From Escherichia coli (lineage in GTDB: Bacteria; Pseudomonadota; Gammaproteobacteria; Enterobacterales; Enterobacteriaceae), in assembly GCF_003019035.1 (NCBI RefSeq), contig NZ_CP027447.1: a DNA stretch of 64,000 nucleotides; one strand, written 5' to 3'. Below the pieces are notes generated by a model, which was not told where the DNA came from, did not search any database, and saw only the letters and a program-made list of their open reading frames with translations. Below, piece by piece: positions 1,087 to 52,278 of the stretch. Within the stretch, counting starts at the first letter, position 1, and the number at the start of each line of letters is the position of its first letter. The translations under genes were made by a program, and so were the position numbers.

Positions 1087-1130
1087 CTCACCAAACAACC
1101 AGTCACCAGTTAAGATACTTCAAAAAAATT

Positions 1131-1165
1131 ACCCACGGGTATTTACTTTTTAAATACCCGTGGGT
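1131..1165. terminator. Hairpin (12-bp perfect stem) downstream of repressor-like gene, A-run 5' side
   Basis: acccacgggtat / atacccgtgggt arms with 11-nt loop. Confidence 0.4.
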
Positions 1166-1349
1166 ATCCTTCCTTTCATACCAACCCACCCCGTCCCACA
1201 GAACGCAGGGCAATACTTCGAGTTACCAGGCAGTGGTCAGGGGGTAAGTAGCCAGCCCGAGGCGTAAGAACATGACGGCAGGGTTCAACTTTAACTATGC
1301 AGCAGGTTTTTGTTCCGCTACCCCGGCGTTAAGGGGAAATGAGGTCAAC

Positions 1350-1505
1350 ATGGATACTATCGATCTTGGCAACAACGAATCTCTGGTGTACGGCGTGTTT
1401 CCCAACCAGGACGGCACATTCACCGCGATGACGTATACCAAAAGCAAAACGTTTAAAACCGAAAATGGTGCCCGTCGCTGGCTGGAAAGAAACTCAGGTG
1501 AGTGA
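1350..1505 (+). CDS. Small prophage protein (51 aa), ydaF-like
   Basis: Internal ATG of track ORF 1272..1505; MDTIDLGNNESLVYGV...; position in early-left region. Confidence 0.3.
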   Translation: MDTIDLGNNESLVYGVFPNQDGTFTAMTYTKSKTFKTENGARRWLERNSGE

Positions 1506-1506
1506 T

Positions 1507-1635
1507 ATGGATTTCGACACAATCATGGAAAAGGCTTACGAAGAATACTTCGAAGGCCTTGCCGAAGGCGAAGAAGCTCTCAGCTTCAGTGAGTTTAAAC
1601 AGGCGCTTTCCAGCTCGGCAAAATCTAACGGCTGA
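1507..1635 (+). CDS. Small prophage ORF (42 aa), acidic
   Basis: ATG 2 nt after preceding stop; MDFDTIMEKAYEEYFEGLAEGEE...; below ORF-track length cutoff. Confidence 0.3.
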   Translation: MDFDTIMEKAYEEYFEGLAEGEEALSFSEFKQALSSSAKSNG

Positions 1636-1664
1636 TAAGCGAAGCAGCACCGCGAGGAATCAGT

Positions 1665-1883
1665 ATGCAGAAACGAGAACCCGTCATCATCGCGCCAGAC
1701 TATACCGATGATGAACTTTATGAGTGGATGCGCCAGAAAATTAATGCAGCGCAGGATCTGAAATGGGCCAATGAAGCCAGGGCTAAGCAGGCTGAAAATC
1801 TGTCCGCTCTGGAGCAGGATATCACCAGGCTGGAAAAAGCAGCGGCATTAAGCATTGCCAGAATGATTACATACCCGCGTTAA
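1665..1883 (+). CDS. Hypothetical prophage protein (72 aa)
   Basis: ORF with AGGAA-type RBS upstream. Confidence 0.35.
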   Translation: MQKREPVIIAPDYTDDELYEWMRQKINAAQDLKWANEARAKQAENLSALEQDITRLEKAAALSIARMITYPR

Positions 1884-2450
1884 TAGCTAACCAACGAAGC
1901 TAAGGTTGGTAATTAAGGAGTTCTCCACGGGTGAGGTGGAGTGCGTGCGCCGGACACGGGTGAGCATCCGGCACTGACAGTTTACTGAAAGGATATTTCC
2001 ATGAAAAGTCAGACCATAACGCGAAAGCGCACGGCGAGGTAGCTGGTTCATAGATAGCCTGTCGTTAAATTTTCGTCGACCGTGCGCTTCCGGTTGTGGC
2101 ACTCCGCGAAATGGCGCGGCGGTAAGTATGGCGGGGTTATTCCTTCCCCGTTGAGGACACCGGGTTGTCAGGTTGACCATACTCTTAAGTGACACCCCCG
2201 CTGCAACGCCCTCTGTTATCAATTTTCTGGTGACGTTTGGCGGTATCAGTTTTACTCCGTGACTGCTCTGCCGCCCTTTTTAAAGTGAATTTTGTGATGC
2301 GGTGAATGCGGCTAAGCGCACGCGGAACAGTTAAAACCAAAAACAGTGTTATGGGTGGATTCTCTGTATCCGGCGTTAATTGTTAACTGGTTAACGTCAC
2401 CTGGAGGCACAAGGCACCGCATCACAAAACTCATTGTTGAGGGCGCGATA

Positions 2451-2639
2451 ATGAAAACGTTATTACCAAACGTTAATACGTCTGAAGGTTGTTTTGAAAT
2501 TGGTGTCAGAATCAGTAACCCTGTATTTACTGAAGATGCCATTAACAAGAGAAAACACGAACGGGAGCTATTAAATAAAATATGCATTCTTTCAATGCTG
2601 GCCCGTTTACGTCCGACTCAAAAAGGATACTGGCAATGA
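2451..2639 (+). CDS. Hypothetical prophage protein (62 aa)
   Basis: ATG with GAGGG RBS; stop overlaps next start (ATGA). Confidence 0.3.
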   Translation: MKTLLPNVNTSEGCFEIGVRISNPVFTEDAINKRKHERELLNKICILSMLARLRPTQKGYWQ

Positions 2640-2827
2640 ATACCACATTTGAACTTGTTCTGACAGTTTTTCTTGTTTCCGGTGAACCGATTGACATGGT
2701 TACTGGCGTATACGGCTCAATGAAAGAATGCATGGCTGCCGCAGCGGAACAGAAAATTCCCGGTAACTGTTACCAGGTCGATAAAGTTATTCACCAGGAT
2801 AATAACGAAATCCCGGCAGGATTTTAA
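2636..2827 (+). CDS. Hypothetical small hydrophobic prophage protein (63 aa)
   Basis: ATG with AAAGGA RBS; translationally coupled to upstream ORF. Confidence 0.3.
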   Translation: MNTTFELVLTVFLVSGEPIDMVTGVYGSMKECMAAAAEQKIPGNCYQVDKVIHQDNNEIPAGF

Positions 2828-2920
2828 AACAGCACCGTAATAAATATCCAGTTTCATTCTTATATGCCAGCAATGGCAGGGATTTGTTCATCCTTAAATC
2901 TGTCATGAGGTTAAAACAAA

Positions 2921-5392
2921 ATGAGTAAAGTCTTTATTTGCGCCGCTATTCCTGACGAACTGGCAACAAGGGAAGAAGGCGCTGTGGCTGTAGCCACAGC
3001 CATTGAAGCTGGCGACGAACGCCGCGCCCGTGCCAAATTTACCTGGCAATTCCTGGAGCAATATCCGGCTGCTCAGGACTGCGCTTATAAATTTCTTGTC
3101 TGCGAGGATAAACCCGGTATACCCCGCCCTGCCCTCGATTCCTGGGATGCTGAATATATGCAGGAAAACCGCTGGGATGAGGATTCTGCTTCTTTTGTTC
3201 CGGTTGAGAATGAATCCGATCCGATGAACGTCACTTTTGACAAGCTGGCCCCTGAAGTACAGAACGCTGTCATGGTTAAGTTCGACACATGTGAAAACAT
3301 CACCGTTGATATGGTTATTAGCGCACAGGAATTGTTGCAGGAAGACATGGCAACATTCGACGGACATATCGTTGAAGCGTTGATGAAAATGCCAGATGTT
3401 AACGCCATGTATCCGGAGCTTAAGCTGCATGCCATCGGGTGGGTTAAGCATAAATGTAAGCCTGGTGCCAAATGGCCCGAAATTCAGGCAGAGATGAGCA
3501 TCTGGAAAAAACGTCGCGAAGGTGAACGCAAGGAAACCGGAAAATACACGTCTGTTGTTGATCTCGCCCGCGCCAGAGCCAATCAACAGCACACTGAAAA
3601 CTCAGCAGAAAAAATCCCCCCTGTCACTGCAGTCATTCGTCGCGAATACAAGCAGACATGGAAAACACTGGATGATGAACTGGCCTACGCTCTCTGGCCT
3701 GGTGATGTGGATGCCGGAAACATTGACGGCAGCATCCATCGCTGGGCAAAAAATGAAGTTATCGACAACGACCGCGAAGACTGGAAGCGTATCTCGGCAT
3801 CAATGCGCAAACAGCCTGATGCCCTTCGCTACGACCGCCAGACTATTTTTGGCCTTGTTCGTGAACGTCCGATCGACATTCACAAAGACCCTGTGGCACT
3901 GAACAAATACATTACTGAATACCTGACTACAAAGGGCGTGTTTGAAGATGAAGGAAGAAATCAGAGCGCAACTGATACTCTCCCGTCGCCAGTACCAGAA
4001 ACTGATGCAGTGGAAACGGCAATTCTGGACAACGAAAAAACCGAATGCAAAGTGGAAGTCGAACCATCTGTAGAGCGTGAGGGGCCGTTCTACTTACTCT
4101 TCACCGACAAGGATGGCGAAAAATACGGTCGCGCAAACAAACTTTCTGGTCTGGATAAGGCACTGGCTGCCGGGGCTACTGAAATCACGAAAGAAGAATA
4201 TTTCGCCCGCAAAAACGGTACATACTCAGGTTCACAACAAAATACTGGTGCATCTGACACGACCGCACAACCAGGGCCGGTAAAAGTTACCGCTGACGAA
4301 GTAAACAAAATTATGCAGGCAGCCAATATCAGCCAGCCTGACGCCGATGAACTGCTTGCAGTATCACGTGGTGAATTTGTTGCAGGGATTAGCGATCCGA
4401 ATGATCCGAAATGGGTGAAGGGGATTGAAACCCGCGATTCTGTGAACCAGAACCAGCAAGAAACGGAACAGAGCGACCAGAAAGCGGAACAAAACAGCCC
4501 AAATACACAACAAAACGAGCCAGAAACGAAACAACCTGAACCAGTAGTGCAACAGGAACCGGAAAAGATCTGCACCGCCTGCGGTCAGAGCGGTGGCGGC
4601 AACTGCCCTGATTGTGGTGCGGTGATGGGCGACGCAACATACCAGGAAACATTCGATGAAGAGAATCAGGTTGAAGTTCAGGAAAATGATCCCGAGGAAA
4701 TGGAAGGCGCTGAACATCCACACAAGGAGAACCCTGGCGGCAATCAGCATCACGCCAGCGATAATAAAACTGGCGAGGCGACAGATCCCTTAATTAAGGT
4801 GAATGGTCATCATAAGCTCACATCCACCAGCAGAGCGGGGATTCATCTGATGATCGACCTTGAAACCATGGGAAAAAATCCCGATGCCCCGATTATCTCA
4901 ATAGGCGCAATATTTTTCGATCCACAAACCGGAGATATGGGACCGGAATTTAGCAAGACCATCGATCTGGATACTGCTGGCGGAGTCATTGATCGTGACG
5001 TCATTAAATGGTGGCTGAAGCAATCACGTGAGGCGCAGTCTGCCATTATGACCGATGAAATCCCGTTAGATGATGCACTACTGCAATTGCGGGAATTTAT
5101 CGACGAAAACTCCGGTGAATTTTTTGTTCAGGTCTGGGGTAATGGGGCCAACTTCGACAACGTGATTTTACGCCGTTCATACGAACGACAGGGTATCCCC
5201 TGCCCGTGGCGTTACTACAATGATCGCGATGTGCGCACAATTGTTGAACTGGGAAATTCCATTGGCTTTGATGTCAGAATGGCTATTCCATTCGAAGGTG
5301 TACCCCACAATGCACTTGATGATGCACGTCACCAGGCAAAACAAGTTTCAGCAATCTGGCAAAAACTGATCCCGAGTCAGGCTGATTTTTAA
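2921..5392 (+). CDS. Prophage exonuclease (823 aa) with C-terminal DEDDh-type 3'-5' exonuclease domain
   Basis: C-terminal motifs IDLETMG, WGNGANFD, HNALDDA; central CxxC-x9-CxxC zinc-ribbon-like motif; Q/E-rich linker; position upstream of xis-int. Confidence 0.6.
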   Translation: MSKVFICAAIPDELATREEGAVAVATAIEAGDERRARAKFTWQFLEQYPAAQDCAYKFLVCEDKPGIPRPALDSWDAEYMQENRWDEDSASFVPVENESDPMNVTFDKLAPEVQNAVMVKFDTCENITVDMVISAQELLQEDMATFDGHIVEALMKMPDVNAMYPELKLHAIGWVKHKCKPGAKWPEIQAEMSIWKKRREGERKETGKYTSVVDLARARANQQHTENSAEKIPPVTAVIRREYKQTWKTLDDELAYALWPGDVDAGNIDGSIHRWAKNEVIDNDREDWKRISASMRKQPDALRYDRQTIFGLVRERPIDIHKDPVALNKYITEYLTTKGVFEDEGRNQSATDTLPSPVPETDAVETAILDNEKTECKVEVEPSVEREGPFYLLFTDKDGEKYGRANKLSGLDKALAAGATEITKEEYFARKNGTYSGSQQNTGASDTTAQPGPVKVTADEVNKIMQAANISQPDADELLAVSRGEFVAGISDPNDPKWVKGIETRDSVNQNQQETEQSDQKAEQNSPNTQQNEPETKQPEPVVQQEPEKICTACGQSGGGNCPDCGAVMGDATYQETFDEENQVEVQENDPEEMEGAEHPHKENPGGNQHHASDNKTGEATDPLIKVNGHHKLTSTSRAGIHLMIDLETMGKNPDAPIISIGAIFFDPQTGDMGPEFSKTIDLDTAGGVIDRDVIKWWLKQSREAQSAIMTDEIPLDDALLQLREFIDENSGEFFVQVWGNGANFDNVILRRSYERQGIPCPWRYYNDRDVRTIVELGNSIGFDVRMAIPFEGVPHNALDDARHQAKQVSAIWQKLIPSQADF

Positions 5393-5450
5393 TGTTCAAC
5401 CCTAATTGCCGCTAACCGTATATAGTTAGCGGCGGTTATGAGATATAGCT

Positions 5451-5654
5451 ATGAGCAGCTTATTTTTAACCGAAGATGAATTGCTAATATTAACGGGCTG
5501 CAAATATGCAAGCCACCAGCGAAAATGGTTAACGGAAAACGGGCTTCCGTTCTATACCAATCGTAGTGGCAAACCGATTGTCAGCCGGGATCTATTTACC
5601 TGCAATAAAACTTTACCACCACGCGAGGTAGAGCCGAATTTTGGTGCGATCTGA
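5451..5654 (+). CDS. Excisionase-like protein (67 aa)
   Basis: Small ORF immediately upstream of and overlapping int (ATGA). Confidence 0.4.
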   Translation: MSSLFLTEDELLILTGCKYASHQRKWLTENGLPFYTNRSGKPIVSRDLFTCNKTLPPREVEPNFGAI

Positions 5655-6679
5655 TGGGAAGACGAAGGAAAAATCCTGAACACGAAAAATTACCTCCAAA
5701 TGTATACCCAAATAAATATAGTTATGTATGGAAACCAACATCCAGAGAATCTGTAACACTAACCGCCATCAAGGATGGTTTAGCTGCTTTATGGAAAAAG
5801 TATGAGGAAACTGTAAATAATCGCGATCGTGCAATGACATTCGGTCGCTTGTGGGAAAAATTCCTCGCCAGCGCCTATTACAGTGACCTCAGTCCAAGAA
5901 CACAAAAAGATTATCTGCAACATCAAAAAAAGTTGCTTGCCGTATTCGGTAAGGTGCCGGCAGATTCCATAAAACCAGAACACATCCGTCGATACATGGA
6001 CAAGAGAGGGGAACAGAGTAAAACGCAAGCCAACCATGAAAAAAGCAGTATGTCCCGCGTTTACAGTTGGGGGTATGAGCGAGGGTACGTGAAGGCTAAC
6101 CCATGTGCAGGTGTAAGTAAATTCAAGGCCAAAAACCGCGAACGATATGTAACCGACAAAGAATACCAGGCAGTATTAAGCGTTGCACCTCTTCCTGTTT
6201 TTATCGCAATGGAAATTGCCTATCTGTGTGCAGCGAGGGTTTCCGATGTGTTATCGCTGAAATGGGAGCAGATTGGAAACGACGGGATCTTTATCCAGCA
6301 AGGGAAAACAGGAAAAAAACAGATAAAAGCATGGAGTCCACGATTACAGGCGGCGATCGAAAAAGCAAAACAGTTACCAACATCCGCCTATGTAATCAGC
6401 AATCAATACGGCAACCGATATATGTACAAAGGCTTTAACGAAATGTGGGTAGAAGCAAGAAATCGCGCAGGCAAAATTTCAGGTATTTTAACCGACTTCA
6501 CCTTTCATGATCTGAAGGCGAAAGGAATTTCAGACTATGAAGGAAGCAGTCGGGATAAGCAACTTTTCTCTGGTCACAAAACCGAGGGGCAAGTGCTAAT
6601 CTATGACAGGAAGGTTAAAGTTTCACCGACACTTGATGTCCCGTTACCTGAAAATATTCCAAGAAAATATTCCAAGTAA
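5654..6679 (+). CDS. int: Phage integrase (tyrosine recombinase)
   Basis: 341-aa ORF ending 53 bp from the tRNA-Ser 3' end; typical lambda-family integrase architecture. Confidence 0.85.
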   Translation: MGRRRKNPEHEKLPPNVYPNKYSYVWKPTSRESVTLTAIKDGLAALWKKYEETVNNRDRAMTFGRLWEKFLASAYYSDLSPRTQKDYLQHQKKLLAVFGKVPADSIKPEHIRRYMDKRGEQSKTQANHEKSSMSRVYSWGYERGYVKANPCAGVSKFKAKNRERYVTDKEYQAVLSVAPLPVFIAMEIAYLCAARVSDVLSLKWEQIGNDGIFIQQGKTGKKQIKAWSPRLQAAIEKAKQLPTSAYVISNQYGNRYMYKGFNEMWVEARNRAGKISGILTDFTFHDLKAKGISDYEGSSRDKQLFSGHKTEGQVLIYDRKVKVSPTLDVPLPENIPRKYSK

Positions 6680-6731
6680 TTCCAAGTGTGATTTTTGTCA
6701 CTGACTTAATGATGTATAAGTGATTGAATTT

Positions 6732-6821
6732 TGGCGGAGAGAGGGGGATTTGAACCCCCGGTGGAGTTGCCCCCACTCCGGTTTTCGAGACCGGTCCGTT
6801 CAGCCGCTCCGGCATCTCTCC
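6732..6821 (-). tRNA. serU: tRNA-Ser (anticodon CGA)
   Basis: 90-nt tRNA with long variable arm; reverse complement reads GGAGAGATGCCGGAGCGG...GGTCTCGAAAACC...CTCTCCGCCA. Confidence 0.9.
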
Positions 6822-7812: not shown

Positions 7813-7888
7813 TCCTCTGTAGTTCAGTCGGTAGAACGGCGGACTGTTAATCCGTATGTCACTGGTTCGAGTCCAGTCAGAGGAGCCA
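7813..7888 (+). tRNA. asnT: tRNA-Asn (anticodon GUU)
   Basis: 76-nt tRNA TCCTCTGTAGTTCAGTCGGTAGAACGGCGGACTGTTAATCCG...GGAGCCA; identical copies at 33015, 34839, 37247. Confidence 0.95.
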
Positions 7889-8049
7889 AATTCAAGTTTT
7901 CATGCTTATCCATACGTCTCTATATGTTTACGATTCAGTAAGTTAGCGTGAAAATCCTTCCCGATGCGTATCTGGTTTTCTCTCCGCATCGGGATAATTT
8001 GGTGGTCAGATCTGGGGTCAGTTTGGTTCGATTCTGGAGTGACCCCCAA

Positions 8050-9312
8050 ATGTCTTTAAACGATTCTAAAATCCGCACGTTAAAACCTTCTTCCCGTCCG
8101 GTAAAACTCTCCGACTCTCACGGTCTGTATCTGCTCGTCAATCCGGGCGGTTCACGCATCTGGTATCTCAAATATCGTTTCAACGGAAAAGAATCCAGAG
8201 TCAGTCTTGGCGCATACCCGCTGGTCTCACTGGCAGAAGCCAGGCAGCAGCGCGACGGTATCCGTAAGCTGCTGGCGCAGAATATCAACCCGGCGCAACA
8301 GCGCATGGCAGAGAAAACTGCCTGCTCTCCTGAAAAGTGCTTTAAGGCGGTGGCGCTGGCCTGGCACAAAACCAACAAAAAATGGTCGGCTGATTATGCT
8401 GCACGTATTCTCGCCAGCATGGAAAATCATATCTTCCCGGCGATTGGTCATCTGCCCGTTGCCACTCTTAAAACGCAGGATTTCACTGCTTTGTTGCGGG
8501 TTATCGAGGATAAAGGCTTTCTGGAAGTCGCGTCCCGAACACGGCAGCAACTCAGCAACATCATGCGCTATGCCGTTCAGCAGGGACTTACCGACAGTAA
8601 CCCAGCGCAGCATCTGGATGGCGTTGTCGCCTCCCCCGTAAAAAATCACTACCCCGCTTTACCGCTGGAGCGATTGCCTGAACTGCTTGACCGCATTGGC
8701 GACTACCGGCAGGGCCGGGAGTTAACCCGGCTGGCGGTGGTGCTGACGCTGCACCTGTTCATCCGCTCCAGCGAACTGCGTTTCGCCCGCTGGAGCGAGA
8801 TCGATTTCAGGCACAAAATCTGGACCATCCCCGCCACCCGCGAAGCCATCGACAAAGTACGGTTTTCCGATCGTGGCGCCAAAATGCGTAGTCCGCATAT
8901 CGTGCCGCTCTCCCGCCAGGCCATTGCCATTCTGAAACAGATACAGGAACTTTCCGGTCATCTGGATCTGGTGTTTCCCGGTGATCATAACCCGTACAAG
9001 CCAATGAGTGAAAACACCACCAACCGGGCGCTGCGCCTGATGGGGTATGATACGAAAACTGAAATCTGCGGACATGGACTCAGGGCGATGGCCTGTAGCG
9101 CCCTGGTGGAGTCAGATCTCTGGTCACGCGATACGGTGGAGCGGCAAATGAGCCACCAGGAGCGCAACAGCGTGCGTGCGGCATATGTGCATAAGGCGGA
9201 GCATCTGGAGGCCAGAAAAGCCATGATGCAGTGGTGGTCGGATTATCTGGATGTGTGCCGTGAGGGGTATATTGCGCCGTATATTTATGCCCGGCAGCAT
9301 AAGGCGGCCTGA
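8050..9312 (+). CDS. int: P4-type integrase (tyrosine recombinase, ~420 aa)
   Basis: Start MSLNDSKIRTLK...; C-terminal catalytic region with ...GHGLRAM... and terminal tyrosine segment; adjacent to tRNA-Asn. Confidence 0.85.
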   Translation: MSLNDSKIRTLKPSSRPVKLSDSHGLYLLVNPGGSRIWYLKYRFNGKESRVSLGAYPLVSLAEARQQRDGIRKLLAQNINPAQQRMAEKTACSPEKCFKAVALAWHKTNKKWSADYAARILASMENHIFPAIGHLPVATLKTQDFTALLRVIEDKGFLEVASRTRQQLSNIMRYAVQQGLTDSNPAQHLDGVVASPVKNHYPALPLERLPELLDRIGDYRQGRELTRLAVVLTLHLFIRSSELRFARWSEIDFRHKIWTIPATREAIDKVRFSDRGAKMRSPHIVPLSRQAIAILKQIQELSGHLDLVFPGDHNPYKPMSENTTNRALRLMGYDTKTEICGHGLRAMACSALVESDLWSRDTVERQMSHQERNSVRAAYVHKAEHLEARKAMMQWWSDYLDVCREGYIAPYIYARQHKAA

Positions 9313-9343
9313 ATCAGAAATAACGTAAATCATTAAAAATGTA

Positions 9344-9380
9344 AAAGCAGATCCTGATTGACCGGGATCTGCTTTTTTGT
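9344..9380 (+). terminator. Rho-independent terminator of the P4-type int gene
   Basis: Stem aagcagatcc / ggatctgctt followed by TTTTTT. Confidence 0.6.
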
Positions 9381-9430
9381 ATTGAGAGGTATTGCCGTTG
9401 TTTTTTATTATTATCAATCAGAAAGTATCT

Positions 9431-27267: not shown

Positions 27268-28383
27268 TCATATTCTCGCCAAAACACTTTTTAATGCCTT
27301 TGCGAATTCATCCAGACTTATATTGTCAATTTTTTGCCCAACGACGACTGACTCCGAAACATCGGCCATTGCTGGCCATCGCGTTTTGTAATCAGCATAA
27401 ATTGCAACAACGGGGGTATTATAGGCACTTGCCATATGTAATATTGAGGTGTCAGGAGTTATTGCGATATAAGCATCTTTTATGATTGCTGCTGAACGTT
27501 TAATCGAGGGTGATAAGGATAAACGGTAGACATTATTATAACAATCCACTAACACCCTGGCTTTTTCTTCCCCTTTTGGTCCATGAACGATCACTATTGG
27601 TATATCTGTTTCACTTTGAATTTTTTCTATTAGATTTTCTGCAATCGATAATGAAAATGTACGTTCCTGCGAGCTACCTTCTAAATTAAGCGCAATGTAA
27701 GATCCTAACGATCGCATTTCCTCGCGCACCTCATCGAGTACATCCTTACTTAGTGGCAATTCATATATTGGCCTGACTGCTGGAAAACCCGCCTCACGCA
27801 TCATAAATGCCCATGTCATGGGCACAGGAGCCCGGAGATTCTGATCCATCCGGGACGCGCTCTTACACAAAGGGGAATAGCACTTCATGGTTAAACCAAC
27901 AACCTGAAAATTCGTTTTTGCTTTCAACTGACTGATAAATATCATCGTTTTCAGGTTCTTTTTACGCATCGCCTCTATACAAAGATCCGGCGTACCGTAT
28001 TGCTGTGTTATGTTCTTCGCTAAATCTTTTATTTCTTTTAATGTTGCGTGATCCTGCATAGTCATTGTGACTAATGTTAATTTAGTCTGTTCAAGTTTGA
28101 GCGCATTAAAGACTTCTAAATTAATTGTCGACGTAACAATTAAAAGATGCTTAATTTTATGCAATTCAAGCGCCCGAATAACTGGAAAGATGGCCATAGC
28201 ATTGCCAATCTGATCGGGAATATGGATAACAACAAACTCTGTTTTTTCAATATTGAAATTAAAAGCTTTATAATCGTAGTAACTAAATGCAATACGTCTC
28301 AACAATGATGCTAAAAACATAACTAACCCCGCTTCCCTACTGGTTATAATGCAATGCAGTTTATCAGACTCATCAGGGCGCAA
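27268..28383 (-). CDS. yeeL: Glycosyltransferase family 9 (heptosyltransferase-like) protein, intact
   Basis: 371-aa ORF (likely start MFLASLLRR at 28320); GT9-like C-terminal region; convergent with yeeJ. Confidence 0.65.
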   Translation of the reverse strand: MRPDESDKLHCIITSREAGLVMFLASLLRRIAFSYYDYKAFNFNIEKTEFVVIHIPDQIGNAMAIFPVIRALELHKIKHLLIVTSTINLEVFNALKLEQTKLTLVTMTMQDHATLKEIKDLAKNITQQYGTPDLCIEAMRKKNLKTMIFISQLKAKTNFQVVGLTMKCYSPLCKSASRMDQNLRAPVPMTWAFMMREAGFPAVRPIYELPLSKDVLDEVREEMRSLGSYIALNLEGSSQERTFSLSIAENLIEKIQSETDIPIVIVHGPKGEEKARVLVDCYNNVYRLSLSPSIKRSAAIIKDAYIAITPDTSILHMASAYNTPVVAIYADYKTRWPAMADVSESVVVGQKIDNISLDEFAKALKSVLARI

Positions 28384-28634
28384 TTTTGTGCATATGCGGA
28401 CTTTTATGTTTCATATCTCGAATCTGTGGATCCTCTGCTTAATCCTTAAACAACACCAGAAACTCCTGCGCTTTCATCTTCCATCGAATTTTTCATGTTG
28501 CCGTTAATCAGCCATAAAATCATTTGCAGATGCGCTCTGTCGAGGTAGTCTCATAAGGTTCGTTTATAGATCGACGGCAATGTGAGTTACCTTTTCCATA
28601 CTAATTATAAAAAGACAGTACAAACAGGATCATT

Positions 28635-29951
28635 ATGGACTCCACGCTCATCTCCACTCGTCCCGATGAAGGGACGCTTTCGTTAAGTCGCGCCCGACGA
28701 GCTGCGTTAGGCAGTTTCGCTGGTGCCGTCGTCGACTGGTATGATTTTTTACTCTATGGCATTACCGCCGCTCTGGTGTTTAATCGCGAGTTTTTCCCGC
28801 AAGTAAGCCCGGCTATGGGAACGCTCGCTGCATTTGCCACCTTTGGTGTCGGATTCCTGTTCCGTCCGCTCGGCGGTGTCATTTTCGGTCACTTTGGCGA
28901 CCGACTGGGACGTAAGCGCATGTTAATGCTGACCGTCTGGATGATGGGCATCGCGACAGCCTTAATTGGTATTCTTCCTTCATTCTCGACCATTGGGTGG
29001 TGGGCCCCCATTTTACTGGTGACGCTGCGTGCCATTCAGGGATTTGCCGTCGGCGGCGAATGGGGAGGCGCGGCGTTACTTTCCGTTGAAAGTGCACCGA
29101 AAAATAAAAAAGCTTTTTACAGTAGCGGTGTACAAGTTGGCTACGGAGTAGGTTTACTGCTTTCGACCGGACTGGTTTCATTGATCAGTATGATGACGAC
29201 TGACGAACAGTTTTTAAGCTGGGGCTGGCGCATTCCTTTCCTGTTTAGCATCGTACTGGTACTGGGGGCATTGTGGGTGCGTAATGGCATGGAGGAGTCC
29301 GCGGAATTCGAACAACAGCAACATAATCAAGCGGCCGCGAAAAAACGCATTCCGGTTATCGAAGCACTATTACGGCATCCCGGTGCTTTCCTGAAGATTA
29401 TTGCGCTACGACTGTGCGAGTTGCTGACGATGTACATCGTTACCGCCTTCGCACTTAATTATTCAACCCAGAATATGGGGTTACCGCGCGAACTTTTCCT
29501 CAATATTGGTTTGCTGGTAGGTGGATTAAGCTGCCTGACAATTCCCTGTTTTGCCTGGCTTGCCGATCGTTTTGGTCGCCGCAGAGTTTATATCACAGGT
29601 GCGTTAATCGGAACGTTGAGCGCATTTCCTTTCTTTATGGCGCTTGAAGCACAATCTATTTTCTGGATAGTTTTCTTCTCCATAATGCTGGCAAACATTG
29701 CGCATGACATGGTGGTGTGTGTGCAACAACCGATGTTTACCGAAATGTTTGGTGCCAGTTATCGCTATAGTGGCGCTGGAGTCGGATATCAGGTTGCCAG
29801 TGTGGTTGGCGGTGGATTTACACCTTTCATTGCCGCTGCACTTATCACTTACTTTGCCGGGAACTGGCATAGCGTCGCTATTTATTTGCTGGCTGGATGC
29901 CTGATTTCCGCAATGACCGCTTTGTTGATGAAAGACAATCAACGCGCTTAA
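28635..29951 (+). CDS. shiA: Shikimate transporter (MFS)
   Basis: 438-aa 12-TM MFS protein; conserved position upstream of amn. Confidence 0.85.
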   Translation: MDSTLISTRPDEGTLSLSRARRAALGSFAGAVVDWYDFLLYGITAALVFNREFFPQVSPAMGTLAAFATFGVGFLFRPLGGVIFGHFGDRLGRKRMLMLTVWMMGIATALIGILPSFSTIGWWAPILLVTLRAIQGFAVGGEWGGAALLSVESAPKNKKAFYSSGVQVGYGVGLLLSTGLVSLISMMTTDEQFLSWGWRIPFLFSIVLVLGALWVRNGMEESAEFEQQQHNQAAAKKRIPVIEALLRHPGAFLKIIALRLCELLTMYIVTAFALNYSTQNMGLPRELFLNIGLLVGGLSCLTIPCFAWLADRFGRRRVYITGALIGTLSAFPFFMALEAQSIFWIVFFSIMLANIAHDMVVCVQQPMFTEMFGASYRYSGAGVGYQVASVVGGGFTPFIAAALITYFAGNWHSVAIYLLAGCLISAMTALLMKDNQRA

Positions 29952-30052
29952 TAGCCTGGCAAAGATCATCCGATCTTCGCCTTACACTTTTGTTTCACAT
30001 TCCTGTGACATACTATCGGAAGTGCGGTAATTGTATGGAACAGGAGACACAC

Positions 30053-31506
30053 ATGAATAATAAGGGCTCCGGTCTGACCCCAGCTCAGGCACTGGATAAA
30101 CTCGACGCGCTGTATGAGCAATCTGTAGTCGCATTACGCAACGCCATTGGCAAATATATTAGAAGTGGCGAATTACCTGATGAAAACGCCCGCAAACAAG
30201 GTCTTTTTGTCTATCCATCACTGACCGTAACCTGGGACGGTAGCACAACCAATCCCCCAAAACGCGCGCATTTGGTCGTTTTACTCACGCAGGCAGCTAC
30301 ACCACCACGATTACTCGCCCTACTCTCTTTCGTTCGTATCTCAATGAACAACTTACGTTGCTGTATCAGGATTATGGTGCGCATATCTCGGTGCAACCCT
30401 CGCAGCATGAAATCCCTTATCCTTATGTCATCGATGGCTCTGAATTGACACTTGATCGCTCAATGAGCGCTGGGTTAACTCGCTACTTCCCGACAACAGA
30501 ACTGGCGCAAATTGGCGATGAAACTGCAGACGGCATTTATCATCCAACGGAATTCTCCCCGCTATCGCATTTTGATGCGCGCCGCGTCGATTTTTCCCTC
30601 GCGCGGTTGCGCCATTATACCGGTACGCCAGTTGAACATTTTCAGCCGTTCGTCTTGTTTACCAACTACACACGTTATGTGGATGAATTCGTTCGTTGGG
30701 GATGCAGCCAGATCCTCGATCCTGATAGTCCCTACATTGCCCTTTCTTGTGCTGGCGGGAACTGGATCACCGCCGAAACCGAAGCGCCAGAAGAAGCCAT
30801 TTCCGACCTTGCATGGAAAAAACACCAGATGCCCGCATGGCATTTAATTACCGCCGATGGTCAGGGTATTACTCTGGTGAATATTGGCGTGGGACCGTCA
30901 AATGCTAAAACCATCTGCGATCATCTGGCGGTGCTACGCCCGGATGTCTGGTTGATGATTGGTCACTGTGGTGGCTTACGTGAAAGCCAGGCCATTGGAG
31001 ATTATGTACTTGCACACGCTTATTTACGCGATGACCACGTTCTTGATGCGGTACTGCCGCCCGATATTCCTATTCCGAGCATTGCTGAAGTGCAACGTGC
31101 GCTTTATGACGCTACCAAGTTAGTCAGCGGCAGGCCCGGCGAGGAAGTTAAACAGCGGCTACGTACTGGCACTGTGGTAACCACAGATGACAGGAACTGG
31201 GAATTACGTTACTCAGCTTCTGCACTTCGTTTTAACTTAAGCCGGGCCGTAGCAATTGATATGGAAAGTGCAACCATTGCCGCGCAAGGATATCGTTTCC
31301 GCGTGCCATACGGGACACTACTGTGTGTTTCAGATAAACCATTACATGGTGAGATTAAACTTCCCGGTCAGGCTAACCGTTTTTATGAAGGCGCTATTTC
31401 CGAACACCTGCAAATTGGCATTCGGGCGATCGATTTGCTGCGCGCAGAAGGCGACCGACTGCATTCACGGAAATTACGAACCTTTAATGAACCGCCGTTC
31501 CGGTAA
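30053..31506 (+). pseudogene. amn: AMP nucleosidase gene interrupted by a -1 frameshift in a C5A4 homopolymer
   Basis: N-terminus MNNKGSGLTPAQ in frame A; the rest in frame B (ORF 30358..31506); total 1454 nt, one short of 485 codons; frame B stop at 30241..30243 localises the shift to 30254..30262. Confidence 0.75.
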
Positions 31507-31847
31507 TAAGTTCTGTTCCTTTTTATCAGGAATAGATGTGAAGGATTTAGTAAGTCATCCAGCAAATAGCCTGCAATAAAGCAGGCTGTTTGCTTCCTTG
31601 GGCAGATGCGAGTTTTATTATAGCCTTAATGATTTCCATATATTAAAAGCAAGTATGCTTTCAAAACACAATTATAAAAAAATCCGCCAACAACATTAGT
31701 TTTTATGAGATTAAATATAAGATTATGGATTTAGAATATTTTTATTTCTAATAGACGAGATTTTTCCTGTTATGATATAATATGCCGAATTAACGCATGT
31801 TAACGATTTACCAGTAATGTAAATAAATTTTCGAGGAGATCATTCCA

Positions 31848-32564
31848 GTGGGACGTAAATGGGCCAATATTGTTGCTAAAAAAACGGCTAAAGACGGTGC
31901 AACGTCTAAAATTTATGCAAAATTCGGTGTAGAAATCTATGCTGCTGCTAAACAAGGTGAACCCGATCCAGAATTAAACACATCTTTAAAATTCGTTATT
32001 GAACGAGCAAAGCAGGCACAAGTTCCAAAGCATGTTATTGATAAAGCAATTGATAAAGCCAAAGGCGGCGGAGATGAAACGTTCGTGCAGGGCCGTTATG
32101 AAGGCTTTGGTCCTAATGGCTCAATGATTATCGCCGAGACCTTGACTTCAAATGTTAACCGTACGATTGCTAACGTTCGCACAATTTTCAATAAAAAAGG
32201 CGGCAATATCGGAGCGGCAGGTTCTGTCAGCTATATGTTTGACAATACGGGTGTGATTGTATTTAAAGGAACAGACCCTGACCATATTTTTGAAATTTTA
32301 CTTGAAGCTGAAGTTGATGTTCGTGATGTGACTGAAGAAGAAGGTAACATTGTTATTTATACCGAACCTACTGACCTTCATAAAGGAATCGCGGCTCTAA
32401 AAGCAGCTGGAATCACTGAGTTCTCAACAACAGAATTAGAAATGATTGCTCAATCTGAAGTTGAGCTTTCCCCAGAAGATTTAGAAATCTTTGAAGGGCT
32501 TGTTGATGCCCTTGAAGATGACGACGATGTACAAAAAGTTTATCATAACGTCGCAAATCTCTAA
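31848..32564 (+). CDS. yeeN: YebC/PmpR-family transcriptional regulator
   Basis: 238-aa ORF, GTG start; characteristic YebC-family sequence. Confidence 0.85.
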
Positions 32565-32574
32565 TTATATTTTA

Positions 32575-32605
32575 AAGAAATCTGTCTTTATGGCAGATTT
32601 CTTTA
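32575..32605 (+). terminator. Terminator after yeeN
   Basis: aaagaaatctg / cagatttcttt stem. Confidence 0.5.
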
Positions 32606-33014
32606 ATCTCATATGATTATTATAAAAATATAATGTTCAACTCGTCATATTGATTATAAAAAACCCCCATTCCCAGAGAAATAATATTTATTAAAATTCC
32701 AGTTCTTCTTTTTCTGATTACAGAAGGAAAAGTGGCAATTACGCATAGTTTCCCGATAAAGACGCGATAGCGACATCCCGCATAAGGCATTTTTTCTTTA
32801 TCTTTGTACGGTACTTCACGGAACGAAGTTTTTGACCCTGCGAATCGTGATGTCTGTTGGGGGGGCAATTTGCTCAATGAAGCATGAGACTCGATTAAGC
32901 GCACGAAACACAGAAATCAAAAAACCCGGTCACTTTTTACAAGGTAACCGGGTAAAAATATTTTTTATTTTTTAACTGTCTTGAGACTCATAGAGATGTC
33001 TCAAGACTAAAATT

Positions 33015-33090
33015 TGGCTCCTCTGACTGGACTCGAACCAGTGACATACGGATTAACAGTCCGCCGTTCTACCGACTGAACTACAGAGGA
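33015..33090 (-). tRNA. asnW: tRNA-Asn (GUU)
   Basis: Exact reverse complement of the asnT sequence; no island attached. Confidence 0.95.
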
Positions 33091-33190
33091 ATCGTGAGAA
33101 CGAGGCGAATATTAGCGACGCTCATCCACAATGTCAAAGCCTGTTTTTTAAATTTGAAATCGTTTGCTGAAATAATCTGCACTTTGTCGT

Positions 33191-34678
33191 TTATTCCGAC
33201 ACAACTGGCTTTTTTTCACACTTTTGCGGCTCAGGTCGAGGATATTTCCACAGCCAACGTCCAGTAACCATTCGCCAGTAAAACAGCACGGCCCGCACAG
33301 CCCAGTCGGCAAACATTCCCAACCAGACACCAACCACACCCCAGCCAAGCATGATTCCCAGCACATAACCGACTACAACCCGGCAACCCCACATGCTCAA
33401 CATAGAAACCCACATGGCGTAACGGGCATCACGAGCACCTTTAAATCCAGCGGGTAGCACCCATGAGGCGGACCAAATAGGCATAAATAAAGCATTTAGC
33501 CAAATCAGAATCACAACGACATGTTTAACCTGTGGATCCTGGGTGTAAAACGATGCCATAACCCCGGCAAAGGGAGCCGTTAGCCAGGCGATGGCCGTTA
33601 ATCCAAGAGTGGACAGCCAGAACACATGCCGCAACTGAATCTCTGCTTGCGCTATCTGCCCTACCCCCAACCTTCGGCCTGTAATGATCGTAGAAGCAGA
33701 GCCGAGCGCACTTCCGGGTAAGTTGATAAGAGCCGCAATTGAAAACGCGATAAAATTTCCGGCAATAACGCTGGTCCCCATCCCGGCAACGAACATTTGG
33801 GTTAATAACCGACCACTGGTAAATAACACTGATTCGACACTCGCTGGAATACCAATCCCCATGACTTCCCAGATAATGCTAAAATTCAGCGGTTTAAAAT
33901 AGCTCTTTAACGAAATCCTTAGCGCAGGATTAAAACCAATCGCCAGCACCCACAAAATTGCCACTGCGCCAATATAACGAGAAATGGTTAAACCCAACCC
34001 AGCCCCGACAAATCCCAGTCCCGGCCAGGAGAAAAGGCCGTAAATCAATATGCCGCTAATAATAATATTAAGAATATTCAGGCTACCGTTAATCAGTAGC
34101 GGTATTTTCGTATTCCCTGCACCACGAAGTGCCCCGCTACCAATCAAAGTGATGGCAGCTGCTGGATAACTGAGTACCGTCAGCTCCAGATAAGTCAACG
34201 CCAGTGCTTTAACTTCTGTCGTGGCATCACCCGCGACGAAATCAATAATTTGTTCGCCAAAATGATGAATAAGCGTTGCCAACAGTACGGCAAACAACGT
34301 CATGATCACCAATGACTGCCGCGTCGCCACCCTCGCTCGTCGTCGATCCCGCTTACCGAGACTAAATGCCACAACGACAGTAGTACCAAGATCGATAGCA
34401 GCAAAAAAAGCCATAATGACCATATTGAAGCTGTCCGCCAATCCCACGCCGGCCATCGCATCTTTTCCCAGCCAGCTGACCAGAAAAGTGCTCAGGACAC
34501 CCATCAACAGGACACAGGCGTTCTCCATGAAGATAGGAACAGCAAGCGGGGTTATCTCGCGCCAGAACAACACTTTGTAACTCTTGCGTTTGGCGTGCCA
34601 GCGAGTACCGTGAACAACCTGGCGTAAAGCAGAGGAGATATTCAAAGCCGACCTTAATTGCAGAAAGTGAAACCACAT
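33191..34678 (-). CDS. yeeO: MATE-family efflux transporter
   Basis: Polytopic membrane protein; likely start MWFHF (495 aa) inside the 546-aa track ORF. Confidence 0.8.
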   Translation of the reverse strand: MWFHFLQLRSALNISSALRQVVHGTRWHAKRKSYKVLFWREITPLAVPIFMENACVLLMGVLSTFLVSWLGKDAMAGVGLADSFNMVIMAFFAAIDLGTTVVVAFSLGKRDRRRARVATRQSLVIMTLFAVLLATLIHHFGEQIIDFVAGDATTEVKALALTYLELTVLSYPAAAITLIGSGALRGAGNTKIPLLINGSLNILNIIISGILIYGLFSWPGLGFVGAGLGLTISRYIGAVAILWVLAIGFNPALRISLKSYFKPLNFSIIWEVMGIGIPASVESVLFTSGRLLTQMFVAGMGTSVIAGNFIAFSIAALINLPGSALGSASTIITGRRLGVGQIAQAEIQLRHVFWLSTLGLTAIAWLTAPFAGVMASFYTQDPQVKHVVVILIWLNALFMPIWSASWVLPAGFKGARDARYAMWVSMLSMWGCRVVVGYVLGIMLGWGVVGVWLGMFADWAVRAVLFYWRMVTGRWLWKYPRPEPQKCEKKPVVSE

Positions 34679-34838
34679 TTCAAATGATGAGGGAGAATTA
34701 GCAAAGCTGCAAAGATTTTCGCCAACAAATTGTCTGCAAATGCAACAAACTGTTGATAGAAACGGCAAACAGTTGGTAAATTTAAAAATCGGGTTTGACA
34801 AAAGATTTTTCGCCGTTAAGATGTGCCTCAACAGCGAT

Positions 34839-34914
34839 TCCTCTGTAGTTCAGTCGGTAGAACGGCGGACTGTTAATCCGTATGTCACTGGTTCGAGTCC
34901 AGTCAGAGGAGCCA
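34839..34914 (+). tRNA. asnU: tRNA-Asn (GUU)
   Basis: Identical 76-nt sequence; followed by terminator hairpin aagcccgc / gcgggctt and T-run. Confidence 0.95.
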
Positions 34915-34951
34915 GATTTCTGAAAAGCCCGCTTTTATAGCGGGCTTTTTG

Positions 34952-35902
34952 CTATATCTGATAATCAATTTCCTCTTCACTGTTCTCCATCACCTGGCGC
35001 TTGATATCCTCAACTGACAGTCCTGCATTACAAAGTTCCAGAAAGCGCCAGACATAGTTACGTTGAAGTTGCCCTCGCTTCAGTCCCATCCAGACAGTAT
35101 TAGCATCGAAAAGATGCCTCGTATCCAGACGGATTAAATTCTTTTCCTCTTGTTCACCACTGGATTGTTCGGCAACTAATCCGATCCCCAGCCCAAGAGC
35201 AACATAGGTTTTAATGACATCAGAATCCTGCGCACTTAATACAATATCTGCCAGCAAACCTTTGCGGACAAATGCGTCATCAATACGTGAGCGCCCCGTA
35301 ATCCCCTGTCGGTAAGTGATTAACGGCCACTTCGCTATTGATTCCAGCGTCAACGGTGTAATTTGCGTCAAGGGATGATCGAGTGGAACAAGCAAACTAT
35401 GGTGCCAGCGAAACCACGGGAAGGCGGCGAGCTGCGGGTCATTACTCAAACGCTCGCTGGCGATACCAATATCAGCTTCGCCATTTTGCAACAACGTCGC
35501 AATTTCCTGTGGTGTACCCTGGATTAGCTCCAGCCGAACCTCCGGGAAAAGTTCGCGAAAAGCTTTAATGACCTCAGGCAAGCTATAACGTGCCTGAGTA
35601 TGCGTCGTTGCAATAGTGAGAACGCCAGACGTATCGTTGGTAAACAGGTCTGCAAGCCGACGAACATTACTGGCTTCATTAAGAATGCGTTCTGCAATGA
35701 CCAGTAATGCTTTGCCCGGTTCAGTCATGCCCAGCAGTCGCTTACCTCGTCGAACAAATATTTCGATGCCAAGTTCATCCTCCAGTTCCCGAATATGACG
35801 GCTGACGCCTGACTGTGAGGTAAAAAGCATATTCGCAACCTCTGTCAGGTTGTAATCCTGACGTGCAGCCTCGCGGATTATCTTTAGTTGTTGGAAATTC
35901 AC
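34952..35902 (-). CDS. cbl: LysR-type regulator Cbl (CysB-like)
   Basis: 316 aa; N-terminal LysR HTH; adjacent to nac. Confidence 0.9.
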   Translation of the reverse strand: MNFQQLKIIREAARQDYNLTEVANMLFTSQSGVSRHIRELEDELGIEIFVRRGKRLLGMTEPGKALLVIAERILNEASNVRRLADLFTNDTSGVLTIATTHTQARYSLPEVIKAFRELFPEVRLELIQGTPQEIATLLQNGEADIGIASERLSNDPQLAAFPWFRWHHSLLVPLDHPLTQITPLTLESIAKWPLITYRQGITGRSRIDDAFVRKGLLADIVLSAQDSDVIKTYVALGLGIGLVAEQSSGEQEEKNLIRLDTRHLFDANTVWMGLKRGQLQRNYVWRFLELCNAGLSVEDIKRQVMENSEEEIDYQI

Positions 35903-36003
35903 GGTAAACTCCGGGCAGTTCAGATTTCCCGTTATTGTTAAAGTCTAATGCCCGGCATAACAAATAATAAAAACCCGCATCTTATTCCATCCCGATATAA
36001 CGC

Positions 36004-36921
36004 TTAGCTCACCAATTGCCACTGCCTTTTTTCCATCACTGGAGAATTAATCACTGACATTAACAACTCTTTCACTGCCTGTGCCTGTGGCGATAAGTTC
36101 GCTCTGGCGGGTAAATTTAATGACAAAGAGAGACTCATGGAAGGAGTGGTAATGCGTGACATCCACCCATTTACTGCGCCACATAACGAACGCGCGGCCG
36201 ATTCGGGTAATACTGCAACGCCCATGCCGCTGGCAATCGCTGCGGTAAGCGTGGCAATAGACTCAATTTCACCAATGACTTTTGCCGTGAGCCGCCGTAG
36301 GGAAAAAGCCTCATCAACACGAAGTCTAACAGCACTGTAATCACTGGGGAGAAAGAGGTTCATTTGCGCAATAGCATTAACATCAACGCTTTGCCCCGGG
36401 CAATCTTGAGTTCCTACCAGGAAAAGATCTTCTTTCAGCAAAGCCTGGCTGGATACACCAGCCACAGGGGAATGCTCATAAATCACCGCCATATCGAGTT
36501 GATGATTTATCAGTTTTTCGTTAAGTACTGCACCGCTATTTTCATGAAGATAGATAACGACCTCCGGGAATTCAGCGCGAACCGCCTGTAATAAGGGCAT
36601 GGTGATGGATGACGCAGCGGTTCCTGGCGCAAAGCCAATCGAGACTTGCCCCGATAATGCCTGACCAACGTTATGCACCGCCAGTTGGGCCTGCTCACAC
36701 TGACGTAAAATGGCCCGCGCATGGGTATAGAGAATTTTTCCGGCGTCAGTTGGCGTAACACCCCGTTTTGTGCGAATCAAAAGTTGTTGATTTAACTCAC
36801 CTTCCAGTGTGGCAACCTGCTGACTGAGCGCTGGTTGTGCGATATGCAATACTTCAGCAGCCTGGGTCAGGCTACCAATATCTACAATTTTTACGAAGTA
36901 TTTCAGGCGTCTGAAGTTCAT
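36004..36921 (-). CDS. nac: Nitrogen assimilation control protein (LysR family)
   Basis: 305 aa from MNFRRLKYFVKIVDIGSLTQAAEVLHIAQPALSQQ... Confidence 0.9.
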   Translation of the reverse strand: MNFRRLKYFVKIVDIGSLTQAAEVLHIAQPALSQQVATLEGELNQQLLIRTKRGVTPTDAGKILYTHARAILRQCEQAQLAVHNVGQALSGQVSIGFAPGTAASSITMPLLQAVRAEFPEVVIYLHENSGAVLNEKLINHQLDMAVIYEHSPVAGVSSQALLKEDLFLVGTQDCPGQSVDVNAIAQMNLFLPSDYSAVRLRVDEAFSLRRLTAKVIGEIESIATLTAAIASGMGVAVLPESAARSLCGAVNGWMSRITTPSMSLSLSLNLPARANLSPQAQAVKELLMSVINSPVMEKRQWQLVS

Positions 36922-37246
36922 GTTGCCTCCGGTTTTTAAGAATCGGCCCAAGTGCCGCCATTACTTACAACCAGATTGCAAGATGCTTGCCAGTTTTATT
37001 GTGGCGTTGATGTACAAGCTAACCAACTGTCAAATAAGAGATTATGATAGATTCGTCATTGGTTCTTTTTATCAGCAGTCGCGTTCCCCTGCCCCATAAA
37101 AGGAGGGTATGCACCACGATGGTTCATTACCAATAAGATTGAAATCTCACCGCTTTGTTGAAATAGACAGCAAACAAACAAAAAAATGCATTTCACCCTT
37201 TGACATCACCATGTACTGCCATTAATATGCGCCCCGTTCACACGAT

Positions 37247-37322
37247 TCCTCTGTAGTTCAGTCGGTAGAACGGCGGACTGTTAATCCGTATGTCACTGGT
37301 TCGAGTCCAGTCAGAGGAGCCA
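37247..37322 (+). tRNA. asnV: tRNA-Asn (GUU)
   Basis: Identical 76-nt sequence; upstream leader identical to asnT; terminator hairpin follows. Confidence 0.95.
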
Positions 37323-41529: not shown

Positions 41530-41700
41530 CCACCGAAGTTGTTGGTATTGACTGACTGGCTGGTCTTCTGGCTTAGCGTCATCCTCTCCCGACCTTCCCA
41601 ATCTCGCGATCAGTGGCATTTTCGGGTTTGTCAGCATTACAGCAGCGGGGGCTGCGAGGGATTTTCACCCTCTTCCCAGGCACAAATGTGCCACACCTGT
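41530..41700 (-). promoter_or_regulatory. Cobalamin (B12) riboswitch-like leader of the cob operon
   Basis: Minus strand reads ...GGGAAGAGGGTGAAAATCCCTCGCAGCCCCCGCTGCTGTAA...GGGAAGGTCGGGAGAGGATGACGCTAAGCCAGAAGACCAGCC (B12-box-like). Confidence 0.65.
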
Positions 41701-41806
41701 CAGCGTATGTTATGAGCTGATTTCACTTTTCCCATAACAGGGAAATAACGTTAATTATTCATTCCAGAGTTTATTTAAACCGTCCTCTTTTTTTGGGGCA
41801 TTTACT

Positions 41807-42721: not shown

Positions 42722-42923
42722 GATAAAACCTCCCAGTTAATTTATTGTTATAGCAAAACAATTGTTTTACATTTAATCTTCACATCATCCTTGATGATTT
42801 ACTGACGAGAAGCACAAAGGACAATAACAAAAGCCTCCGTGAAGCGGGAGACTTTTTAATAAGTTCGGAAAGCAGATCACAAACAGTAAAAAAATAAACG
42901 TTTATAACTGCCAGATTATTTCG

Positions 42924-51157: not shown

Positions 51158-51790
51158 GTGGATAAACAAACCTTGCAGGAAACAGTGAGCCAGATTCTGG
51201 ATGAGATGCGCGAGCGCCCTATCCCTCTGGGTGTTTCCAGTCGTCATATTCATCTTTCAACAGCGGATTATTTGCGTCTTTTTCCTGAACAACCGATTAG
51301 CGAGAAAACGCTGTTAATGCAACCTGGCCAATTCGCTGCTGAACAGGTTGTTACGCTGGAGGGACCAAAAGGTAAATTGCACAACGTTCGCTTGTTGGGG
51401 CCGCTACGCAATGCAAGCCAGGTGGAAATTTCCCGTACGGACGCCAGAACGTTAGGGATCACCGCTCCGCTACGCATGTCAGGCGATCTCAGCGGCACTC
51501 CAGGGATTCGTTTGATAAGCCCATTTGCGGAACTGGAGATCACATCTGGCGTCATTGTCGCGCAACGGCATATTCATATGTCTCCGCTGGATGCCCTGAT
51601 TTATGGCGTTACGCATGGCGATAAAGTGGCGGTTGCCATTAAAGGTGATGAGCGACGACTGATATTCGAAAACGTCGCTGTTCGCGTCTCTCCGGATATG
51701 CGTCTTGAAATGCATATTGATACCGATGAAGCCAACGCCGCAGGGGCTGATAGCCCTGACGTTTTTGCCACACTGGTGTCAGTGCCATGA
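51158..51790 (+). CDS. pduL: Phosphate propanoyltransferase
   Basis: 210 aa; order. Confidence 0.8.
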   Translation: MDKQTLQETVSQILDEMRERPIPLGVSSRHIHLSTADYLRLFPEQPISEKTLLMQPGQFAAEQVVTLEGPKGKLHNVRLLGPLRNASQVEISRTDARTLGITAPLRMSGDLSGTPGIRLISPFAELEITSGVIVAQRHIHMSPLDALIYGVTHGDKVAVAIKGDERRLIFENVAVRVSPDMRLEMHIDTDEANAAGADSPDVFATLVSVP

Positions 51791-52278
51791 ATAACATGCT
51801 GATGCAACGTATTGTTGACGAAGTGGTTTTTCGCCTTAAACAACGTGCGGGAAAAACACTCGTGCTGACTGTTTTTCAACTGCGAGACGCCAGCGTTCAA
51901 GAGATAGTTCATCAGTATGCATCATTACAAATCCGATATGTCGATCTGCCGTTGTTACGACAACTTGCGGAGAACAAAACGTCAGATCGAGCAGCAATTC
52001 AGATACACGAAACGTTAGCCTGGGGATTGCACATTCAATTGTCGTTGCAGCGTCATTTCCTGAACGCCATTGAATTGAAGACTCTCGCCCGTCTACCGCT
52101 AAGCTGGTGCGACGAGCAAGGGCAACCGATCTACCTTCATCGTGATCGACTTTTAAATTATGCCGATATTGCACAGTTAAGCTCGGGAATACTGGTGTTA
52201 CAGCGAAAATGTTGTGTGACCGCACTGGCTCGTGAAGCGGCAATTACCCGAAATATTCAGTTAATCAGGCAGGAGTAA
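51787..52278 (+). CDS. pduM: Microcompartment structural protein
   Basis: 163 aa; order. Confidence 0.7.
   Translation: MNNMLMQRIVDEVVFRLKQRAGKTLVLTVFQLRDASVQEIVHQYASLQIRYVDLPLLRQLAENKTSDRAAIQIHETLAWGLHIQLSLQRHFLNAIELKTLARLPLSWCDEQGQPIYLHRDRLLNYADIAQLSSGILVLQRKCCVTALAREAAITRNIQLIRQE

Follow-up and report, generated by a model that had tools for sequence, protein, structure and literature searches.

A single lost C in the amn gene of an Escherichia coli clone, very probably a genuine loss-of-function allele

In the Escherichia coli DNA analysed here, a stretch of 64,000 nucleotides that we refer to as the window, the gene for AMP nucleosidase, amn, has lost one of six consecutive C residues, and the resulting frameshift is very probably a genuine, inherited loss-of-function allele. 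Amn (EC 3.2.2.4) converts AMP to adenine and ribose 5-phosphate, a function that the sequence predicts to be lost in this strain. The same frameshifted sequence occurs in independent public assemblies, in which it marks a clone and not a single isolate, and comparable frameshifts are scattered at low frequency across the species.

The lost base and its consequences for Amn

The amn pseudogene occupies positions 30053..31506 on the plus strand, between shiA (28635-29951) and yeeN (31848-32564), and the order shiA-amn-yeeN is the conserved one in E. coli. An intact GGAG ribosome-binding site can be read off the sequence at 30043..30046 (+), 6 nt 5′ of the start ATG (30053-30055, +). From there to the stop TAA (31504-31506, +) the gene measures 1454 nt, against 1455 nt (484 codons plus stop) for the intact form. 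There is no single uninterrupted 484-codon open reading frame, as the frame changes after codon 70. Codons 1-70 (MNNKGSG...TNPPK) are translated in the original frame from 30053..30262 (+), while codons 71-484 and the TAA lie in the -1 frame at 30262..31506 (+). This second frame reads TRAFGRFTHAGSY...NEPPFR from 30262 and its 414 codons specify Amn residues 71-484. Followed from the ATG, frame 0 yields 70 native and 61 out-of-frame residues before a premature TGA at 30446..30448 (+) closes a 131-aa product.

A TAG in the downstream frame at 30241..30243 (+) sets the upstream bound on the frame change, which is confined to CCCCCAAAA at 30254-30262. The only homopolymers between the frame limits are a C5 run (30254..30258, +) and the adjoining A4 run (30259..30262, +). 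The A4 run has the same length as in intact alleles; the C5 run is C6 in those alleles, at gene nucleotides 202-207, and is the site of the deletion. The original prediction had named the gene as amn, deduced a 1-bp deletion from the count of 1454 against 1455 nt and used the TAG to place the shift within 30254..30262. The identification is borne out by the Pfam domains, the match to structure 1T8R and the identity to strain SCU-301 described below; the arithmetic is correct, and translation confirms both the TAG and the interval. The second part is out of frame as it had said, although the label of +1 that it gave to that frame should be -1 (equivalently +2) relative to the start.

To identify the lost base, we turned to 5426 complete RefSeq E. 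coli genomes, in 5412 of which amn was found. The nearest intact allele is that of E. coli SCU-301 (NZ_CP051751.1; amn protein WP_001060216.1). Over an alignment of 1551 nt, the window and SCU-301 differ by one gap and no substitutions, all 1454 amn bases being identical, and an 82-mer from SCU-301 is matched exactly by 1325 genomes. The tract reads CCCCCCAAAA (C6A4) in both SCU-301 and K-12 DH1 and CCCCCAAAA (C5A4) in the window. Because both intact strains are C6A4, the lost base is a C, (C)6 to (C)5, at gene nucleotides 202-207. The original prediction had left open whether an A or a C was missing and had proposed comparison with the amn of related strains, in which a single open reading frame is indeed restored by C6A4. 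Loss of an A, which supposes a K-12 tract of C5A5, is ruled out by the K-12 DH1 alignment. The difference from SCU-301 is thus a one-base change in a mononucleotide run with nothing else altered in 1454 nt, as homopolymer slippage would leave it, and the deletion must be recent, since those 1454 nt contain no second change.

The Amn of SCU-301, to which the repaired window gene is equivalent, aligns with the E. coli structure 1T8R over residues 1-484 (E = 0, 1118.7 bits). It comprises an N-terminal domain, AMNp_N (PF10423, residues 12-167), and a catalytic domain, PNP_UDP_1 (PF01048, residues 266-431). Both are still encoded in the window DNA, with PF10423 split between the frames at about profile position 57. 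The 131-aa product retains profile positions 1-57 of PF10423 only; positions 55-151, the remainder of the N-terminal domain, lie in the -1 frame together with the whole of PF01048. Translation from the normal start therefore misses the entire catalytic domain and about 60% of the N-terminal one. Gene callers place a 371-aa open reading frame in the 3′ part of amn, beginning at a GTG at 30391. We saw no convincing ribosome-binding site ahead of this GTG, and expression of the fragment is unsupported. The locus should be annotated as one frameshifted pseudogene, not as two open reading frames of 131 and 371 aa.

The allele in independent assemblies and the window beside SCU-301

A homopolymer that is one base short invites the suspicion of an error in assembly. 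The exact 131-aa product is present on 53 public contigs, among them one NCBI chromosome of 5,168,620 bp. Over 2.7-5.5 kb, five Logan contigs, from runs SRR28454873, SRR27539014, SRR27538924, SRR27539045 and SRR27538748, are 100% identical to the region 27053-33040 of the window and share its C5. The contigs of two further runs, SRR28454867 and SRR28455285, have C5 together with a single private SNP, which in both cases lies in shiA. At least seven run assemblies are hence identical to the window or one private SNP away from it, and error-free contigs of several kilobases argue for accurate reads. As C5 is found in independent Logan assemblies, an error confined to a single assembly cannot account for the allele.

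We compared positions 6775-64000 of the window with SCU-301 and found three differences in these 57 kb: an additional T at 13619, the missing C at 30259 and an A/G SNP at 52157. Only one indel other than that in amn is present, and it lies outside homopolymers; the amn allele is, moreover, also found elsewhere. The strain of the window is a very close relative of SCU-301 and yet distinct from it, since it carries a prophage at a tRNA-Ser gene at which SCU-301 has none. We had considered whether the window could simply be SCU-301 with one altered base, based on a 24.9-kb match with a single gap, and rejected this in view of the prophage, the T at 13619 and a S124N difference in PduM.

It is improbable that a consensus error at the homopolymer produced C5 in the window assembly and that amn is in truth C6 and intact in the strain. 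Two unique 1-bp indels to one SNP relative to SCU-301 over 57 kb is a larger share of indels than is usual for natural divergence, and as a sign of assembly error this 2:1 ratio would speak for such a reading, but at amn it is outweighed by the independent Logan contigs. The eight RefSeq genomes with C5, listed below, fall in a narrow range of accessions, all between CP026612 and CP034404, whose numbering suggests deposit around 2018. Several NCBI assemblies with C5 (L019, L031, L037, L039) have fragmented neighbouring genes, for example shiA and yeeO, and such fragmentation is typical of error-prone long-read assemblies. These observations hint that C5 is a technology-linked consensus error in some long-read-only assemblies, beside real cases. 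Against an error in the window stand the seven or more separate Logan run assemblies with C5 in 100% identical flanks, two of them with SNPs of their own; the lack of any other broken gene in the window relative to SCU-301 over 57 kb; and the occurrence of the same frameshift in other lineages, on isolate contigs of ~39.7 kb from many runs. We conclude that the allele is genuine with high confidence and that an assembly error is very probably not its cause. The original prediction had offered a strain-specific pseudogene or a sequencing error; the former is favoured by the identical frameshifted sequence in independent Logan assemblies, though as a clone-wide allele and not one strictly specific to the strain. 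A suspected homopolymer error can thus be settled without recourse to reads, if independent public assemblies are searched for the exact truncated product.

The other two differences from SCU-301 lie far from amn. The additional T at 13619 (CAGATGAGCC in the window, CAGAGAGCC without it) falls outside homopolymers, 24 nt 5′ of the ATG (13643) of an rhs core-protein gene, and neither SCU-301 nor the other E. coli listed has it. This base may be authentic or may stem from an assembly error, with a possible effect on the leader or ribosome-binding region of rhs. The SNP at 52157 is the only one in the 57 kb and lies in pduM (51787-52278), where it gives Asn at residue 124 in the window and Ser in SCU-301. 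With 159 blocks of the public collection containing it, the PduM version of the window is the common one, and the derived form is probably that of SCU-301.

At its left end, the window holds the end of a lambdoid prophage (1-6715) at tRNA-Ser(CGA) (6732-6821). This segment encodes an integrase (5654-6679), DicF RNA (2225-2276) and an exonuclease, and its closest matches are only ~96.7% identical. The tRNA-Ser(CGA) gene itself differs from that of SCU-301 at two bases, 6763 (G/A) and 6774 (C/T), which look like a compensatory stem pair, of the kind expected where the 3′ portion of a tRNA gene comes from a phage. An island with integrase genes (7813-17422) adjoins a tRNA-Asn gene (7813-7888); the EFASI sRNA (11569-11697), a C4 antisense RNA (13177-13264) and the Rhs core protein of 1259 aa (13643-17422) map to this stretch, with small open reading frames after Rhs. 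Three identical tRNA-Asn(GTT) genes, at 33015-33090 (-), 34839-34914 (+) and 37247-37322 (+), are arranged around yeeO, cbl and nac, making four copies with that at 7813. This cluster is the site of the pks island in other strains (PMC11707995); no pks island is present at the cluster in the window (33015-37322). Further downstream, a complete pdu microcompartment operon with pocR and pduF lies within 41541-64000. A cobalamin riboswitch (41541-41715, -) and the sRNA STnc230 (42782-42865) map to the same region, and of the cob genes only cobUST are found beside the operon.

Recurrence of amn frameshifts across E. coli

To determine how widespread the deletion is, we ran a 40-mer able to match the deleted form only against the 5426 complete RefSeq genomes. 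The C5 frameshift was present in eight (~0.15%): 2015C-4498, 2013C-3513, FORC_082, CRE10, N3, 2013C-3181, 89-3156 and DTU-1. In all four that we inspected (2015C-4498, 2013C-3513, FORC_082 and CRE10), PGAP labels amn as frameshifted. When these four and one Logan haplotype were compared, 25-33 nt separated them from the window and 6-24 nt from one another. C5 in the four genomes would represent separate events, in some cases possibly assembly errors.

The truncated products form a cluster of 139 members at 90% identity, and all ten sequences retrieved from it switch frame at the same point, ...TNPPK|RAHLVV. One variant, P0003 (AXV12775.1), occurs on 175 contigs, some of which are isolate-style, ~39.7 kb long and drawn from several runs. 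There are 576 indexed blocks with the 371-aa C-terminal fragment, and products of the opposite change, an insertion giving C7, are found on 22 and 6 contigs. As a control, we searched for the products of one-base deletions in a T5 run at codon 51, which are found on 97 and 157 contigs. In the haplotype of the window, at least 1000 contigs encode the intact protein and 53 the broken one. The notion of the C6 run as an exceptional mutational hot spot was rejected on these counts, as the T5 run breaks about as often. In amn, a dispensable gene, frameshifts at homopolymers make up a generic polymorphism of low frequency, and a short C6 run has been broken repeatedly across the species at a low and unremarkable rate.

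Two Logan contigs, from runs SRR27596379 and ERR14939166, encode a 131-aa product identical to that of the window, and the first 433 nt of their amn equal those of the window. The rest of the gene differs at 25 positions and the flanks diverge by ~3%. Either the deletion arose independently in these contigs, on a related 5′ haplotype, or their amn is a recombinant that carries the broken 5′ end.

The tract has also been seen to mutate in the laboratory. In a 1200-day stationary-phase evolution experiment, a 1-bp insertion arose at amn coding position 207 of 1455, the last C of the run (PMC7858067), which indicates that the tract mutates in real time.

Recurrence of this kind could be read in another way, with the C6 run acting as a mutational on/off switch or with amn loss being adaptive in niches such as starvation or the gut. 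This is very unlikely. In its favour, the same deletion is found on many amn haplotypes, 6-33 nt apart, with the 139-member cluster of products, the 576 blocks of the 371-aa fragment and the C7 products (22 and 6 contigs) all adding to the tally; the insertion at the run was among the mutations fixed in one stationary-phase lineage (PMC7858067); and an amn knockout has more ATP, according to the citing source discussed below. Rarity argues against it (8 of 5426 complete genomes, and 53 broken against at least 1000 intact contigs for the haplotype), as does the similar behaviour of the T5 control tract (97 and 157 contigs). Six bases is, furthermore, short for a contingency locus. The profile is not that of a phase-variable locus: a 6-nt tract, variants in ~0.15% of genomes and a control run that behaves alike. 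We hold it equally doubtful that the run, at codons 68-69, is a recurrent target of convergent adaptive loss in which -1 slippage might keep a trace of enzyme. Were the adaptive reading true, loss of Amn might raise the adenylate and ATP pool in starvation.

History of the allele and comparison with known systems

Ordinary loss of a dispensable gene remains the preferred reading, for which we propose the following history. In a bacterium closely related to SCU-301, replication slippage would recently have deleted one C of the C6 run at gene nucleotides 202-207 and left the amn allele otherwise unchanged. The cells would then be without AMP nucleosidase, save for the at most ~0.1% of translations that spontaneous -1 slippage may rescue. 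With amn dispensable, the allele would have persisted and spread with its clone. It is common to a clone seen in many samples. In PMC3042610, Morrison & Shain 2008 is cited for an amn knockout that is viable, with ~30% more ATP and better cold tolerance. The effects of amn loss should be mild, which fits spread with the clone. In the transcriptome of E. coli O157:H7, amn is induced 14.5-fold under phosphate limitation (PMC3978041). The strain and its clone are predicted to be Amn-less, and their adenylate pools, phosphate-starvation response and cold tolerance may change slightly. Beyond annotation, the importance of the allele is small.

The deletion leaves behind a potential -1 slippery site. 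The heptamer C_CCA_AAA at 30256..30262 (+) is in phase with frame 0, as read from the sequence, and were the Pro and Lys tRNAs to slip by -1 upon it, translation would continue into ACG (Thr71) and restore the exact wild-type ...NPPKTRAF... Sharma et al. (PMC4066793) include C_CC.A_AA.A among the patterns at which frameshifting in E. coli exceeds 0.10% with no stimulator present, and motifs of this stimulator-less type reach at most ~10 times the 0.055% background (PMC4066793). Downstream of the heptamer, we found no stimulatory structure in the 68 nt of 30263-30330: the minimum free energy is -8.3 kcal/mol (z = +0.69), and 148 of 200 shuffled sequences fold at least as well. Nor was a Shine-Dalgarno-like sequence seen upstream. 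The two-frame layout is not conserved, with 5409 genomes matching across the tract and the frameshifted form in 8 of 5426. The efficiency to be expected does not exceed a few tenths of a percent. Slippage could plausibly supply full-length Amn in trace amounts. That programmed -1 frameshifting on this heptamer should yield useful amounts of full-length wild-type Amn is so unlikely as to be negligible, for although the in-phase heptamer restores exactly the wild-type residues and its pattern exceeds 0.10% unaided, the sequence downstream does not fold to stimulate it, the ceiling without stimulators is low, and amn is one open reading frame in more than 99.8% of complete genomes.

The known -1 sites of dnaX, IS911 and IS3, with their X_XXZ_ZZN heptamers, share with the window an in-phase heptamer of the required form; the window has neither a stimulatory hairpin or pseudoknot nor a conserved two-ORF layout. 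Known E. coli Amn (PDB 1T8R/1T8S/1T8W/1T8Y; WP_001060216.1) is another counterpart: the window has the same DNA, the same gene order shiA-amn-yeeN and the same two domains, PF10423 and PF01048, and is set apart by the one C missing from gene nucleotides 202-207 and by the 131-aa product that results from the normal start. The mutation of Ratib et al. 2021 (PMC7858067) struck the same homopolymer and is likewise a frameshift, but it is an insertion in a laboratory K-12 background, whereas the window has a deletion. Further counterparts are the amn genes labelled as frameshifted by PGAP in RefSeq, which have the same CCCCCAAAA tract and the same kind of truncated product, one of them being AXV12775.1 in NCBI nr, in amn backgrounds that lie 30-33 nt from the window in 2015C-4498, 2013C-3513, FORC_082 and CRE10. 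The event in the window is of a known kind, the ordinary loss of a dispensable gene that is already represented in public annotation.
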